Below, piece by piece: positions 5,277 to 30,231 of a stretch of 33,401 bases of DNA. The DNA comes from a virus (Duplodnaviria > Caudoviricetes). The stretch is taken from positions 1 to 33,401 of the IMG/VR virus record IMGVR_UViG_3300038316_000268; one strand, given 5' to 3'. The position numbers and the translations under genes were made by a program. The first letter of the stretch is position 1, and every line of letters begins with the position of its first letter. The notes under the pieces are model-generated. The model was not told the origin of the DNA. It saw nothing but the letters and a program-made list of their open reading frames with translations, and ran no database searches.

Positions 5277-5295
5277 AGTTCGATAATTTTTCCAC

Positions 5296-5331
5296 CAAAA
5301 TTACCCGCTCGGATTTGGAAAAAAAAGGACA
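5296..5331 (-). promoter_or_regulatory. Putative late promoter for lysis/tail-tip operon
   Basis: Minus strand TGTCC-N23-TAATTTTG, matching the Bacteroidota -7 consensus TAnnTTTG. Lies 20 nt upstream of the ATG at 5276. Confidence 0.75.
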
Positions 5332-5333
5332 AC

Positions 5334-5360
5334 AAAAAAACGCCCTAAAGTCGGGCGTTT
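5334..5360 (-). terminator. Intrinsic terminator at end of tape measure gene
   Basis: AAACGCCC-7 nt-GGGCGTTT hairpin followed by a T-run on the minus strand. Confidence 0.7.
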
Positions 5361-13466: not shown

Positions 13467-13478
13467 ATTTTTTTTATT

Positions 13479-13514
13479 CAAAAATACCCGCTTACGTTTT
13501 CAGAAAAAAGGACA
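13479..13514 (-). promoter_or_regulatory. Putative late promoter for portal/tail operon
   Basis: Minus strand TGTCC-N23-TATTTTTG. Confidence 0.75.
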
Positions 13515-13517
13515 AAC

Positions 13518-13537
13518 AAAAAAAGCCCTGATAGGGC
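13518..13537 (-). terminator. Short intrinsic terminator just upstream of late promoter
   Basis: GCCCT-3 nt-AGGGC followed by T7 on the minus strand. Confidence 0.5.
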
Positions 13538-14030: not shown

Positions 14031-14246
14031 TCATCCATTCATCACAATCACGTGTCGGTTAATATAATCCTCTTCCGATATCTCTTCATCAATCATTGCT
14101 TCTGCATCTTCCGCGTTGTAATGGTACGACTTCCCCAAATCCCTGATCATTTCCGGCTGAATTCCTACCGTGTCGTCCAACTCAAGCGCCACTTGCAATG
14201 CCTTTTTCAGCGATGGCGCATCAATGAGGTAAAGCATCGTTATCAT
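14031..14246 (-). CDS. Hypothetical acidic protein (71 aa)
   Basis: ATGA overlap with the upstream gene. Last gene of a four-gene coupled operon. Confidence 0.65.
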   Translation of the reverse strand: MITMLYLIDAPSLKKALQVALELDDTVGIQPEMIRDLGKSYHYNAEDAEAMIDEEISEEDYINRHVIVMNG

Positions 14247-14530
14247 TGCTTTCCTCCTTTCTTCGGAATAGTTATTTCACACTCACTCATTCTTGTAAAT
14301 TGATCTTTTATGTTGTATAACAGTGTTTTCGATACAAAGCAGTTAATATCTTTGTTGTCTTCTTCATCGTAAAGAATAAGCATTCTGATAGCATCTTCAA
14401 TAGTCAAAGCAATTTGAATATAACTGTCATCAAACAAATCTTTCAATTTAAAAATGGGCTCAATATTTTCCAATTTTCCTGAATAAGGATTGACTACCAT
14501 GATTGGATCGTAGAACTCTTTTGCTTTCAT
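14243..14530 (-). CDS. Hypothetical protein (95 aa)
   Basis: ATGA overlaps on both sides. Confidence 0.7.
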   Translation of the reverse strand: MKAKEFYDPIMVVNPYSGKLENIEPIFKLKDLFDDSYIQIALTIEDAIRMLILYDEEDNKDINCFVSKTLLYNIKDQFTRMSECEITIPKKGGKQ

Positions 14531-14763
14531 ACCGCACTCCTTTCCCCGGGAACTGTTGGCAATTCACCCATTTCTACTTTTGCAATAATACCGTTTCCCC
14601 AAAAAGTAAGGTAAACCCGTTCATTCACCGTTTGCATCTCGCAACTCACGTCCTGTCCTTCAAACAACAAGGAAAAGGCATTACCCATTGTTTCTGCCAC
14701 ATAGCCGCAACTCTTCACTGTGCGCCGTGGTACTTCAAAATTTAAAGCTTTTTTCATACTCAT
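14527..14763 (-). CDS. Hypothetical protein (78 aa)
   Basis: ATGA overlaps on both sides. Confidence 0.65.
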   Translation of the reverse strand: MSMKKALNFEVPRRTVKSCGYVAETMGNAFSLLFEGQDVSCEMQTVNERVYLTFWGNGIIAKVEMGELPTVPGERSAV

Positions 14764-14945
14764 ATTCTTTTACATATTTTTTCCAATAATTCTCGTTCTT
14801 CATTCGACAGCATCATCACAAAATCATCGTTGCTGTACCAGTTCCCGTCTTCATCTTTTCTATCGGGTGTGAAACACCTGTCGTTTACTGTATTCACGAT
14901 ATCGCTGATGAGCGATAATTCGGCATGTGATAAATTGATCTGCAT
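14760..14945 (-). CDS. Hypothetical protein (61 aa, MQINLSHAEL...)
   Basis: ATG at 14945 follows an A-rich leader and lies downstream of the -7 box at 14977-14984. The longer TTG start would run through the promoter/operator region. Confidence 0.65.
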   Translation of the reverse strand: MQINLSHAELSLISDIVNTVNDRCFTPDRKDEDGNWYSNDDFVMMLSNEERELLEKICKRI

Positions 14946-14976
14946 AATTTTTTCCTTTAATTGTAAGTTTATGATA

Positions 14977-15087
14977 CAAATGTAACATATAGTATCACAA
15001 AACAATATCAATACGTGATATTTAACATTACTTTAACCTTTATTAAGTGATATTTAATGTTACATATATGCTGATTTAGTAACTTTG
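14977..15087. promoter_or_regulatory. Divergent promoter pair with three 17-bp operators
   Basis: -7 boxes TACATTTG (minus, 14977-14984) and TAACTTTG (plus, 15080-15087). Operators GTGATA-N5-YRTTAC at 14982-14998 (inverted), 15015-15031 and 15047-15063. Confidence 0.75.
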
Positions 15088-15106
15088 TCAAAAGAAAAAA
15101 ATAATT

Positions 15107-15382
15107 ATGTTGATTATAAAAGATATAATAAAGCAAAAAGGCTATACCATTGAAGACATAGCAAATAAAATGGAAATAAAAAGAGAAAGTCTTTCAAGAG
15201 CAATCAACGGCAATCCAACTCTCGAAACGCTCAAAAAAATAGCCGATGCGTTGGAGGTTTCCGTCCCGGAACTGTTTGCACCGGAAAACTCAACAGATTT
15301 CACGGCTTTTATTGATAACAAAGGCGAGCTGAAGCGTTTTAATTCGATAGAAGATTTAAAAAAATATTTAGAAACATCATAA
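15107..15382 (+). CDS. XRE-family HTH transcriptional regulator (91 aa)
   Basis: IKDIIKQKGYTIEDIANKMEIKRESLSRAINGNPTLETLKKIADALEVSVPELF is a canonical Cro/C1 HTH. It is the only convincing plus-strand gene. Confidence 0.93.
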   Translation: MLIIKDIIKQKGYTIEDIANKMEIKRESLSRAINGNPTLETLKKIADALEVSVPELFAPENSTDFTAFIDNKGELKRFNSIEDLKKYLETS

Positions 15383-15414
15383 CAAAACCCCGAATCACTT
15401 CGGGGTTTTGTTTT
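15381..15414. terminator. Bidirectional intrinsic terminator
   Basis: Perfect 14-bp stem AACAAAACCCCGAA-TCAC-TTCGGGGTTTTGTT between convergent genes. Confidence 0.9.
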
Positions 15415-15949
15415 ATTTATCAAAAAAATAAGCTTTTATAGTTACCTCAGTTACATCATCAAATTTTATAGAATCAAATTCAGTAAACGACAATAATACA
15501 ATTGCCTTATATTTATATTTTTGCAAATAAGGAAGTATTTCGTATGCAACATCATCCGGCACAAAACCGATGTGATATTTTTCGGCAATAATCTTTATGG
15601 CATAATCACTGTGTCGGTTATTTTTATCATGTTTCAATTTCACCTCTTTACCACCATATAAATATTTTGCTTCTTGTTGAGCCTCATACGTTCTATAAAA
15701 TATACCTGCAACATCAAATTCAAAAGAAGTAGAATTACTGTATTCAGCATCAAATTCATTTCGTGTTTCGGTCAGTTCATTGTATGCTTTTTTTCTTCTG
15801 TCAGCTTTCTCCTGCATCAGCTTTGCATACGCCTCTTCTTGTAATTTAGATTCTTCTTCTTTTTTCTTTTCTAGTTTTTTTGTCGAATTTCCTGAAAAAA
15901 TAATGGCAATTACCATTAATAAAAGAATAGTTACAATTATCCAAATCAT
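15413..15949 (-). CDS. Membrane-anchored HIRAN-domain protein (178 aa)
   Basis: N-terminal TM (MIWIIVTILLLMVIAIIFSG), coiled-coil linker and HIRAN signature FDVAGIFYR...VKLKHDKNNRHSDYAIKI...IGFVP. Start moved to ATG at 15949. Confidence 0.8.
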   Translation of the reverse strand: MIWIIVTILLLMVIAIIFSGNSTKKLEKKKEEESKLQEEAYAKLMQEKADRRKKAYNELTETRNEFDAEYSNSTSFEFDVAGIFYRTYEAQQEAKYLYGGKEVKLKHDKNNRHSDYAIKIIAEKYHIGFVPDDVAYEILPYLQKYKYKAIVLLSFTEFDSIKFDDVTEVTIKAYFFDK

Positions 15950-15959
15950 GATATCAATA

Positions 15960-16343
15960 TTATGGTTCAACCAACTTTGTGTTTTTTTTAATTTTAAGCA
16001 ACCAGTGATAAACATTCTCATTTCCTTCCGTTATAACAAAGGCTTGAACAAACTCCCAACCCAGAGATCCCATAAAGTTCATGGCATCTACCATCGAGTT
16101 GAAAGAAACTGCCTTACCGTTTTCATCCTTAAGCAAACGATTATTCTTCCAAAAACTGTTAGCTTGTCCAAAATCAATTTCAACAATAATTTTTGTACTT
16201 AGAAATTTTCTGGTGCCAAGTAGTTCACAATACGTATATTCTACTTGTTCAATTTGCTCAGAAGTTTGAGGTACTTGATTTTCTTGAGCTATTACTCCAG
16301 AAAACAACAATAAACCGATTACAATAGATAAAATTTTTCTCAT
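15960..16343 (-). CDS. Secreted/periplasmic hypothetical protein (127 aa)
   Basis: Signal peptide MRKILSIVIGLLLFSGVIA-Q (Gln at +1, typical of Bacteroidota). Motifs IDFGQ and FNSMVDAMNFMGSLGWEFVQ. Start is at 16343 or 16349. Confidence 0.8.
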   Translation of the reverse strand: MRKILSIVIGLLLFSGVIAQENQVPQTSEQIEQVEYTYCELLGTRKFLSTKIIVEIDFGQANSFWKNNRLLKDENGKAVSFNSMVDAMNFMGSLGWEFVQAFVITEGNENVYHWLLKIKKNTKLVEP

Positions 16344-16443
16344 GATCATAAAATTTAAAATTGTGAATAAATGTGACTGCAATATATAAAAATAAAATAG
16401 AAGAACACCTTTTTGCCCCAGTATAATCAAAATGGTGTTCAAT

Positions 16444-16469
16444 AAAAACCGCCCCGTTTTTCGGGGCGG
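16444..16469 (-). terminator. Intrinsic terminator after hicB
   Basis: CCGCCCCG-5 nt-CGGGGCGG followed by TTTTTATT on the minus strand. Confidence 0.85.
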
Positions 16470-16508
16470 CATGCAGTAGATTGCAAGAAAAAGGTGTTGA
16501 ATCAGTTC

Positions 16509-16904
16509 TTAAAGCTCTACTGCCAATAATTCGCGTCCTAACTGGTGTAATCCCTGCTCAATCTTTTTGCGTTGCGCCGGTCGCGGTTTCTTCAGTCCCG
16601 TAGAGTATTGGTGTATCAACTTTTGATTTATTCCGGTAATCCGTTCGATGGCAGGATTGGATAATATGCCTTTATAATATTGCAAAAGGCTTTCCGCATC
16701 AAACTTATACACTAACTCATAATCACCTTTCAATGCGGCTGGTATTTGAGAATCATCAAATGTTTTAATAGTTTCTATAGCATCCAATATGGATTGTTTA
16801 CACTCCTGAACAGTGTCTCCAGCGCCGTAAATTCCTTTTACATTTTGGGCGTATGCACCAAAAGAATCTGAACTTTTTTCAATTATGATTTGTATTGTCT
16901 TCAT
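16509..16904 (-). CDS. hicB: HicB-family antitoxin with C-terminal HTH
   Basis: IQIIIEKSSDSFGAY...GAGDTVQECKQSILDAI partial RNase H fold and a C-terminal HTH (ITGINQKLIHQYSTGLKKPR). Directly follows hicA. Confidence 0.9.
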   Translation of the reverse strand: MKTIQIIIEKSSDSFGAYAQNVKGIYGAGDTVQECKQSILDAIETIKTFDDSQIPAALKGDYELVYKFDAESLLQYYKGILSNPAIERITGINQKLIHQYSTGLKKPRPAQRKKIEQGLHQLGRELLAVEL

Positions 16905-16929
16905 TTTATTATTTTGTTGTGGAAATAGG

Positions 16930-17109
16930 TTATATCCCCATTTCCTTTTTTAAACTTCTCTCTAAGCCTTTCGGTATCTCTTTTGTCCCATGATTGGGAA
17001 TAGATACCGTCTGTCCGTTTTTCTCCCAAATCTCATGGCTTCCTTTTCCCCGTCTGAGAAACCGCCATCCGTTTTTTCTTGCCTGCTTTAAAAAGTCGCT
17101 ATACTTCAT
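16930..17109 (-). CDS. hicA: HicA-family mRNA interferase toxin (59 aa; below ORF-track cutoff)
   Basis: Hand translation MKYSDFLKQARKNGWRFLRRGKGSHEIWEKNGQTVSIPNHGTKEIPKGLERSLKKEMGI shows the GW, GSH, PxH and GL hallmarks. Confidence 0.93.
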   Translation of the reverse strand: MKYSDFLKQARKNGWRFLRRGKGSHEIWEKNGQTVSIPNHGTKEIPKGLERSLKKEMGI

Positions 17110-22139: not shown

Positions 22140-22175
22140 CAAATTTGCAATTGCAAACCCGAAAATAAAAGGACA
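22140..22175 (-). promoter_or_regulatory. Putative late promoter for packaging operon
   Basis: Minus strand TGTCC-N23-CAAATTTG (one mismatch to TAnnTTTG), overlapped by the palindrome TTTGCAATTGCAAA. Confidence 0.7.
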
Positions 22176-22176
22176 T

Positions 22177-22203
22177 AAAAAAACCGCCACAATGGGCGGT
22201 TTT
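22177..22203 (-). terminator. Intrinsic terminator after capsid/tail-tube operon
   Basis: AAAACCGCC-6 nt-GGCGGTTTT with T7 on the minus strand. Confidence 0.85.
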
Positions 22204-22864: not shown

Positions 22865-24289
22865 TTACGCACCGGGCTCAGCTTCAGGTGGCAAATAAGC
22901 AAAAATTGCTTCTTTCATCGCAAATCCGGTTCCTTTTCTGAATTCAATAAATACTTTCACATCGTAGTTCTGCACTTGCATGTAAACTTTTGCCTCGCGA
23001 TGATCTCGACTCATCAGGTGTTTGAAATTCACTTTCGGTGTTAGGAAGAAAGCTTTGCTTCCTATCATCCCTTCCATTGGCACAAAATAGAAGTTGGTGA
23101 AATCCACACGGTTTTCGTTTTTGTCCTCGTTTTTCGTGTTTGGATATTTCGTCTGGTAAGCACGATTGTACATGCGGATCAGGTCTGGATCGGCATGTAT
23201 AGCCATCCGTTTATTCCGATATTTGGGTGCAACTGCATCAACGGCCGATTCAACGGAAGCAACAATATTCTCAGCGGTCAGTGTAACACCATCAAGTAAC
23301 CAGGTAACGCTTGCATCAGCTGCGGCTTTCAAGTCTTTCAGGATAGTCAGGTATCCGTCCATGCTATCAACAACAGCGGTTTCAGGGGCTGCAGTTCCGT
23401 CACCGGCTGGAACGAATTCCTTGAAGTCACCAATAGCCATGGCAGTTTCCAAATCTTCTGAAAGTTTAGGAAGAATCAAACCGTCAACAATGTATTTAAC
23501 GATCGGCATTTTGTCCGGTGTTAAATTCTCATCATACAAATAACCGATGTATTGGTCAATGATATCGGCCGGCTTAATCGGCTGGTTAACTTTAAGAATG
23601 AAATTCTTGATTGTGATGGGTGAGAATTTTACTTTACCTGTCGGCGTCCAATATGGAACAAATTGTTGCAAAACAGAATCTATTTCGGCTTGCGATGCGC
23701 GCCATTCTGATTTATCGGTTACAACCGTGGTCATGTGGTCGGTACAAGTCAGATCGTTGGTGATCTTACGCAGGATCTCAAGTTTCTCAGAAGAAACATA
23801 CTTGCCAAATTCGGCCTGAAGTTCCGATGTGTCGATGGTTGTATCTGTTGAATACATGGCCGAAACATCGCCTTTGAAATAGGCATCAATCACGCGATTG
23901 TGCACTAAACTCATGTTGGGTTTGAATGCTGTTTTCACTCCTTGTCCTTGTAATTTTACGTGAACGGGGTTGTCTTTTTCTTCCTCTTTTGTAAGAATAT
24001 CAATTTTTCCCTGCAAATCGGCTTTATCTTTCAAAGCGGCATCAAAATCCGCTTTTATTTTTGTCAACTGGTTTTTCAACTCAGTCATTTCGGTTGATTT
24101 CCCGTCTACGGGACCGTCTTTTTCCGCTTCCGCCAAATCTTGTTCGAATTTAGTGACGAATTTGTCACCATATTCGTCCGTCAATTTAGCCTTCATATCA
24201 TCGGTGAGAAAGCTTTTACCTTCCTTGTTGACTGGAAGATGGCTCATTCCGAAGATCGAGAGTACAACTGCTAAAATTTGCTTGAACAT
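22865..24289 (-). CDS. Major capsid protein with N-terminal scaffold-like region (474 aa)
   Basis: Follows the S49 protease. About 150-aa charged coiled-coil N-terminus, then a capsid-like body (QQFVPYWTPTG, SMDGYL, DVKVFIEFRKGTGF). Confidence 0.8.
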   Translation of the reverse strand: MFKQILAVVLSIFGMSHLPVNKEGKSFLTDDMKAKLTDEYGDKFVTKFEQDLAEAEKDGPVDGKSTEMTELKNQLTKIKADFDAALKDKADLQGKIDILTKEEEKDNPVHVKLQGQGVKTAFKPNMSLVHNRVIDAYFKGDVSAMYSTDTTIDTSELQAEFGKYVSSEKLEILRKITNDLTCTDHMTTVVTDKSEWRASQAEIDSVLQQFVPYWTPTGKVKFSPITIKNFILKVNQPIKPADIIDQYIGYLYDENLTPDKMPIVKYIVDGLILPKLSEDLETAMAIGDFKEFVPAGDGTAAPETAVVDSMDGYLTILKDLKAAADASVTWLLDGVTLTAENIVASVESAVDAVAPKYRNKRMAIHADPDLIRMYNRAYQTKYPNTKNEDKNENRVDFTNFYFVPMEGMIGSKAFFLTPKVNFKHLMSRDHREAKVYMQVQNYDVKVFIEFRKGTGFAMKEAIFAYLPPEAEPGA

Positions 24290-29741: not shown

Positions 29742-29941
29742 AGCTTTAATTTTTCAATGTCCTCAAAAACGCCAATGTAAATTTCTTCTTCATGATCATG
29801 CATTAATTTCAGTATATCATCAATCGCCTCATTCCGGGCTTCTTTTTGGGCTAACTCGATTAACTCGTGAAGTTCAAATTCATTATCCCGCCATCTCATC
29901 AAATAATGTTCTGCTGATTTCATATGCTTTGTTTTAAACAT
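29738..29941 (-). CDS. Hypothetical protein (67 aa; may start at MKSAE)
   Basis: Short ORF in the early operon with AQKEARNEAID motif. Confidence 0.6.
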   Translation of the reverse strand: MFKTKHMKSAEHYLMRWRDNEFELHELIELAQKEARNEAIDDILKLMHDHEEEIYIGVFEDIEKLKL

Positions 29942-29953
29942 TCGTAAATTCTA

Positions 29954-30164
29954 TGTTAGCGGAAATGATTTTACCCACCCACATCTACAATAGTAGGTTT
30001 AATCGGTTCACCGCCAACCGAAGCGAATAGAGATAGTTTTTTCGTTGGTTTACCATCTTCAACCATCCAAGCAATTGAACCGCAACAAGGCGTTGAACCT
30101 GTCCAGTTTTTCAATTGAGTTTTACATACGTTGCATTCCACCCAAAAATCACTATCCGCTAACA
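29954..30164. repeat. Imperfect ~20-bp inverted repeats with integron-core-like GTTAGCG/CGCTAAC flanking a 211-bp segment
   Basis: TGTTAGCGGAAATGATTTT (29954-29972) versus the reverse complement of 30145-30164, TGTTAGCGGATAGTGATTTT. Confidence 0.8.
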
Positions 30165-30231
30165 CATTATTTGCGTCAGTGGGGGTTTCGTTTTTCATAT
30201 CTATTTGTATTGTTTTTTGTTCAGCTGTCAT
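29971..30231 (-). CDS. Small Zn-ribbon-like protein (CNVC...CC)
   Basis: ATG at 30231 follows GAAAGGATT; alternative start at 30198. The Cys cluster lies wholly within the inverted-repeat-bounded segment. Confidence 0.65.
   Translation of the reverse strand: MTAEQKTIQIDMKNETPTDANNVLADSDFWVECNVCKTQLKNWTGSTPCCGSIAWMVEDGKPTKKLSLFASVGGEPIKPTIVDVGG

Follow-up and report, generated by a model that had tools for sequence, protein, structure and literature searches.

The open reading frame at 30198-29971 (minus strand) of the window, by which we mean the whole 33.4-kb virus record analysed here (74% complete), encodes MKNETPTDANN-VLADS-DFWVECNVC...PCC... and is probably an eroded cassette of an integron-like phage system. 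Under this explanation, the GCTAAC at the 3' end of the cassette and the half-site behind it form the point where units are gained and lost, likely by means of a compact tyrosine recombinase that comes from elsewhere. Units are gained or lost at the AAC of the coding strand, and in related phages arrays of units lie 5' of a recombinase of ~266 aa and a conserved half-site, with their genes on the recombinase strand. The minus strand of the window also carries tail, terminase, protease, primase, and methyltransferase genes.

The first-pass annotation had reported that the segment is bounded by GTTAGCG and CGCTAAC, with about 20 bp of imperfect complementarity. Both ends are present on the minus strand, GTTAGCG starting at 30163 within the open reading frame (...ANNVLADS...) and CGCTAAC lying at 29961-29955, just past the TAA at 29973-29971, and when the two are aligned, 18 of 20 columns match and one gap is introduced. 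The repeat ranks third among the inverted repeats of the window (score 36), and 20 codon-block shuffles gave 0 to 4 hits each at a score of at least 34 (mean, 1.6). Taken alone, it is borderline against the shuffles, and because such a score arises by chance about 1.6 times per shuffled window, outside evidence was needed. A chance inverted repeat flanking an ordinary small gene would agree with these scores, but it is refuted, and its probability made negligible, by two observations: identity with unrelated contigs stops at the repeat, at 29955, and among 125 cassettes the own ends pair better than neighboring ends in 116 and worse in none (mean complementarity of 9.8 versus 2.2, with the window cassette scoring 11). 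Comparison with other contigs indicates that the inverted ends of the window are cassette ends.

As had also been noted, no full attC hairpin or integrase is visible. The flanks of the segment fold no better than shuffles (z of 0.15 and −0.06), and a hairpin scan found none at the window locus; a CALIN has at least two attC sites and no integrase, and the locus, with no complete hairpin, does not qualify, while the sister phage L113 has one hairpin. PF00589 is absent from the 74%-complete contig, and ~0.7 kb of further sequence beyond the window held no recombinase among plus-strand frames of at least 70 aa.

The window cassette was found at 95 to 98% identity in unrelated contigs. Six of them (L001, L002, L112, L114, L115, and L116) match it at 95 to 97%, and the identity stops at 29955 every time. 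In five of these copies (L001, L002, L112, L114, and L115), TAAC and the complement of the leader arm stand about 125 nt upstream of GTT, so the leader is the 3' arm of a ~127-nt attC-like hairpin with an ATG in its loop; the 5' arm of L116 is mismatched. The same five contigs carry the intact form of the cassette, and the intact leader hairpin folds at a z of −2.2. What survives in the window (all features on the minus strand) is the 3' part of the attC-like hairpin (30164..30206), that is, a shortened loop and the 3' arm, the 5' arm being lost. The start codon (ATG, 30198-30196) lies in the shortened loop, and the 3' arm (about 30185-30164) encodes the leader MKNETPTDANN, which is shorter than the leader of the intact copies. 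The 5' outer arm of the cassette (30145..30163) comprises the GTTA core and about 15 nt and is read in frame as V-L-A-D-S-D-F; the cargo (29971..30150) is a Cys-rich domain of 59 codons and a stop; and the 3' outer arm (29955..29970) ends in GCTAAC. Behind it lies a non-folding half-site (29936..29954), 5 nt and ATTTACGAATGTTT after TAAC, which is the likely insertion point. Since the 5' hairpin arm is lost, the window cassette is likely fixed in place.

Upstream of the cassette, an in-frame stub (30207..30231, minus strand) contains a second possible ATG at 30231 (MTAEQ...). It stands where the sister phage L006 has two more genes (L006 3269-3706), and in the window the start of the first of these is left in frame with the cassette open reading frame. 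Further variants around the stub were seen in runs X5, X8, and X10.

A 24-nt leader-arm motif recurs in 43 viral contigs; the 5' arm is retained in 34 of these. The integron-like character suggested by the first-pass annotation is borne out by the 30 domain families found behind this one motif and by the tyrosine recombinase that accompanies arrays in relatives. The VLAD/VSGS leaders that it mentioned on small phage proteins are also real, being present on 25 of 102 protein homologues as matched by a regular expression, and cassette leaders explain these shared N termini on unrelated small phage proteins. The hairpin of L116, at about 1400-1520, is chimeric, its 5' and 3' arms belonging to two site families and joined in the AT-rich loop.

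The exact junction at which DNA is gained or lost is the downstream GCTAAC (29955), not the GTT within the open reading frame. The sister phage L113, with flanks 99.5 to 99.75% identical to the window on both sides, has 483 extra bp exactly at 29955, consisting of a hairpin, an open reading frame, and a new GCTAAC, after which the downstream sequence of the window resumes; run X14 shows the same form, and the two were counted once. In run X7, a 432-bp unit sits at the same core, in one contig with flanks of 183 and 260 nt and with the 8-nt core repeated. The alternative inserts that the first-pass annotation proposed to look for in relatives were found at the 3' GCTAAC (L113 and X7). Either event may have been an insertion or an excision. 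In run X10, the junction of the window has a depth of 861 against 1559 to 1686 in the flanks, and the core has loose ends to either side. Further cassette ends abut the half-site in X1, X9, and X10; the overlap of the loose ends in these three runs with the window is just ~30 nt, and other phages may be their source. Most of the compared runs are possible sources of the window. The junctions map to a core of 6 to 8 nt that holds AAC, a resolution coarser than the single bond, and the crossover falls within the 6-nt GCTAAC core, at A|C by analogy with attC. Contigs of eight runs contained no excised-circle joint, which is uninformative because contigs drop rare forms.

The 19 nt after the TAAC of the window are a recurring non-folding motif that is also present in other phages. 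Its copies stand behind a self-complementary cassette in 12 of 26 distinct cases, compared with 0 of 26 controls. The 3' end of the window cassette fits the end consensus found before the half-sites of recombinase loci, where T stands at −7 in all 39. The half-site of the window differs from the consensus beside the recombinase, which counts against the proposed explanation. Candidate half-site classes with a 3- or 6-nt spacing were rejected, since most were chance matches to coding sequence and just 1 of 35 had paired ends; the class with N5 and a non-T base gave 0 of 3.

When 33 pairs of loci sharing the same unit were compared, 21 shared both flanks, 12 broke downstream only, and none broke upstream only. 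Given breakpoints of 12 versus 0, the leader normally travels with its domain, although 10 of the 12 informative pairs were selected by the leader and the others stand at 2 versus 0. Seven unrelated loci picked by the domain alone (at least 94% nucleotide identity) all diverge from the window directly after AAC; six retain the leader arm, and the break in the seventh falls within the arm by several bases rather than at GTT. The segment from GTT to AAC indeed has no start codon, as first described, but the mobile unit includes the leader. The proposal of an integron-cassette-like module holds in that the segment is a cassette of an integron-like phage system; the insertion of a startless domain at G/TT of the coding strand is not supported as its main route, as the exact junction is the 3' GCTAAC and the leader belongs to the hairpin of the cassette itself.

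We consider it unlikely that the startless GTT..AAC domain is itself the mobile element, with the recombinase also exchanging at G|TT of the coding strand and domains being swapped behind a resident leader. Several loci do have this appearance. The sister phage L006, which is 100% identical to the window over 30206-30151, shares the shortened leader unchanged, together with the first 13 nt from GTT, and continues with another domain; in L389, that domain follows a different leader, the core there being GTTG/CAAC. At the protein level, four homologues (P0003, P0005, P0007, and P0008; 92 to 93% domain identity) have other leaders joined at xLAD, and runs X5 and X8 contain a contig whose sequence between leader and half-site is different, its short side being just 26 nt. 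Against this stand the absence of upstream-only breaks among the 33 DNA pairs, the leader kept in six of the seven domain-picked loci with the seventh breaking inside the arm, and L006 itself, whose eroded 3' end and two further differing genes look like block replacement.

Leaders and domains are, in these comparisons, exchanged, and short-homology recombination explains the exchange equally well, since the block differences of L006 and the chimeric hairpin of L116 indicate that it would suffice. It could be argued that the repeats are relics which serve general phage recombination only as short homology linkers, and that the window phage is not acted upon by any site-specific enzyme. The window contig does lack a recombinase, chimeric hairpins such as that of L116 exist, and L006 resembles a block swap. 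We nevertheless regard this reading as very unlikely, because the L113 and X7 units share only 6 to 8 nt with their target and end exactly at the core, and because a site-specific process is required to explain the orientation, the strand bias, and the linkage to the recombinase.

The integron-like system that we favor was characterized further across the related phages. The hairpins have the layout TAAC-N6-arm...arm-N2/3-GTTA, and in 102 of 119 cases the spacer on the 5' side, which is the AAC arm, is longer by 3 to 4 bases. Among 222 distinct hairpins, 209 fold better as the coding strand, by a mean of 2.6 kcal/mol, and this strand has 199 G.T compared with 61 A.C positions. The hairpin with the window leader is an exception to this bias: in its intact form both strands fold equally (−17.6 versus −18.1 kcal/mol), which argues against the favored explanation. 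An in-frame ATG occurs in the 144 long hairpins in the xVL frame (48 cases, a count inflated by selection on the window leader), the VS frame (42 cases), or the third frame (5 cases), and in 4 of 76 short hairpins. A unit consists of a hairpin body, often with an ATG and a leader, and a domain with complementary ends. The window itself shows the leader arm, paired ends, and half-site of this system, the recombinase being found only in relatives.

The recombinase is a protein of 263 to 270 aa; in two of the five other array-bearing contigs it is encoded immediately 3' of the array and on the same strand as the cassette genes. The first 45 of 71 viral recombinase loci were analysed (L139-L183), the other 26 being mostly partial or distant matches; one of the 45 is the L110 contig again. 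These loci have 166 hairpins upstream of the recombinase and 12 downstream, with at least two upstream hairpins at 35 of the 45, and 91 of 104 units have their open reading frames on the same strand as the recombinase. Of the 45 loci, 44 have a conserved half-site no more than 125 nt from the start of the recombinase, versus 2 of 780 control windows, by a regular expression written after inspection of the data, a post hoc definition that weighs against our explanation, as does the leader selection of the breakpoint pairs. As in an attI, the half-site lies 5' of the recombinase and variable DNA precedes its TAAC; near-identical copies of the recombinase locus differ exactly 5' of TAAC, and AAC does not vary among all 39 distinct half-sites. 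Six of the loci (L141, L142, L144-L146, and L163) have no ATG where the other recombinases start, and an alternative start codon is possible there.

The recombinase has the domains Phage_int_SAM_4 and Phage_integrase, and all 17 aligned members are about 265 aa long. Against TIGR02249, the two linked recombinases score 150 and 162 bits, below the cut-off of 265. Residues 175-213 of the recombinase query span residues 174-260 of VchIntI4, being 48 residues shorter there, and the IntI-specific domain of ~35 aa is not present. In INPHARED, no close cultured member was found, the best matches to the recombinase (37%, and 41% over 75% of the query) being annotated as integrases, and the region of L113 with the two cassettes had no match at the DNA level. 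The genome relatives of the ~266-aa recombinase are mostly from Bacteroidota, which makes Bacteroidota the likely hosts of the window phage. A comparison of the predicted capsid-sized protein (22865-24289) with five genomes as a host search gave no match and is uninformative. In many genome loci the layout is the other way round: the hairpins lie downstream of the recombinase, and their asymmetry is of the opposite sign (−2 to −4 in 29 of 43 such hairpins). Loci of this kind (L322, L330, L332, L336, L337, L380, and L374) come from Bacteroidota, Ignavibacteria, and a Desulfitobacterium genome.

The window (74% complete), G006 (45% complete), and G007, a 100% complete phage with an array, yielded no recombinase, and together with the low number of array contigs that have one this counts against the favored explanation. 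Because G007 is complete and bears an array yet has no recombinase, supply of the enzyme in trans is plausible. In the mechanism that we propose, the coding strand would fold and be cleaved at A|C, with the ~266-aa recombinase as catalyst, and this enzyme would act in trans on the window half-site. Circular intermediates would form, and in the excised circle the two ends of the domain would pair as the outer arm of the site, seen in the linear form as the 20-bp complementarity. Translation would start at the ATG in the hairpin loop, and cassettes would be expressed from the phage's own operon. The half-site behind the window cassette likely still takes cassettes. A bolder form of this mechanism, an inverted phage integron in which a recombinase devoid of the IntI domain, which is regarded as indispensable for recombining hairpins, moves cassettes with N-terminus-encoding sites, also in trans at a half-site of recombinase-less phages, and can cleave both strands, leaders and domains thereby being reassorted as separate modules into new small proteins, seems to us rather unlikely.

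The likeness to integrons is considerable as far as the accessible parts of two accounts (Cury et al., 2016, PMC4889954; Nivina et al., 2016, PMC5027507) describe them. Integrons likewise are arrays in which imperfect hairpins separate units of one gene each and exchange takes place at an AAC/GTT core; one of the strands is stabler and richer in G.T (2.6 kcal/mol in the phage system compared with 2.12 reported for attC), and a half-site stands just 5' of an Xer-related tyrosine recombinase with Phage_int_SAM_4. In contrast with integrons, the phage recombinase is without the IntI insertion and reaches 150 to 162 bits against the cut-off of 265. Integron cassettes have the gene followed by attC, with the gene on the top strand, whereas in the phages the hairpin precedes its own gene, and the genes lie on the better-folding strand and read toward the recombinase. 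The start codon lies inside the long phage sites, and the cassette ends pair over about 12 to 20 nt instead of 7. The pattern of attC, whose extrahelical bases lie on the arm opposite AAC, is not followed either, the phage spacer being lopsided by 3 to 4 nt on the AAC arm. In its workings the system resembles an integron, but it does not belong to the IntI integrons, from which it departs in the IntI domain, the cassette polarity, and the position of the unpaired bases. No Rfam match was obtained for the window and four loci.

In the available part of their report, Qi et al. (2023; PMC9892861) describe attC clusters in phages as CALINs, including Polaribacter phage P12002L, whose sites are treated as ordinary attC sites without an integrase; P12002L_attC1 is, of six sites, the only one for which recombination by IntI1 was not verified there. 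This site has the 6/3 spacer of the phage hairpin family and lies on the coding strand, which holds five more such hairpins with a score of at least 11. In P12002L, a cultured phage (L397, 29900-39250, minus strand), at least six sites of the family surround a methyltransferase and small genes, with no related recombinase. Unlike the phage system presented here, the CALINs are not described in that part of the report with a cognate recombinase, half-site, gene inversion, or leader. P12002L_attC1 is the only published site of the hairpin family found in the searched literature, to judge from the available text of its source.

Recombination sites that give translation signals to cassette genes are described, in the part of PMC8876359 that is accessible, for ORF-11, ORF-17, and ORF-18 of attI1 and for short open reading frames of attC. 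Those are separate frames that act by translational coupling in class 1 integrons, in contrast to the phage site, which encodes the N terminus of the cargo itself. Delta-attI-type cassettes, as outlined in the accessible text of PMC12901181, have non-folding half-sites at their boundaries, a feature shared by L117, L118, and the 3' end of the window cassette; they are substrates of IntI1 in resistance integrons, and their likeness to the phage units is one of description only. The IntegronFinder 2.0 paper (PMC9024848), in the part available, names one complete integron in Bacteroidetes proper, in Salinibacter. No published description of the phage system was found in the literature outside subscription papers, bioRxiv supplements, and the Dryad file of Qi et al. 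(2023), and it seems to be undescribed in the literature searched.

The arrays, half-site, and exact junctions that accompany a recombinase devoid of the IntI domain make the origin of IntI from Xer-like enzymes testable. The locus is a natural before-and-after series, with one half-site and at least two different inserted units in near-identical genomes, and it sits in a phage with no recombinase in the sequenced 74%. The window cassette, being decayed, is a witness rather than the best model substrate, and the cultured P12002L is a ready experimental carrier.

The cargo has a CxxC...CC pattern, is zinc-ribbon-like, and has 102 protein homologues. It gave no match in Pfam, an E value of 0.004 against phrog_4127, and 0.88 to 0.89 against zinc-ribbon look-alikes of the Atlas, which is only a lead. 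The domain also occurs free-standing with its own ATG, in site-free copies (L003, L004, L122, and L125-L131). In L117 and L118, it lies between two similar non-folding half-sites, and the leader is replaced by another start.

Elsewhere in the window, a motif is repeated at 5287-5346 and 13470-13529 (60 nt at 75%) and at 22163-22188, with a 26-nt core in all three copies, which lie directly upstream of three minus-strand gene blocks; it is possibly a late-promoter element. RNA run X15 covers only small pieces of the window. An accessory island at 14031-17109, with portal-region genes on one side and terminase genes on the other, contains a HicA toxin and a likely antitoxin neighbor, an HTH regulator, several small open reading frames, and a HIRAN-domain protein with a hydrophobic N terminus.
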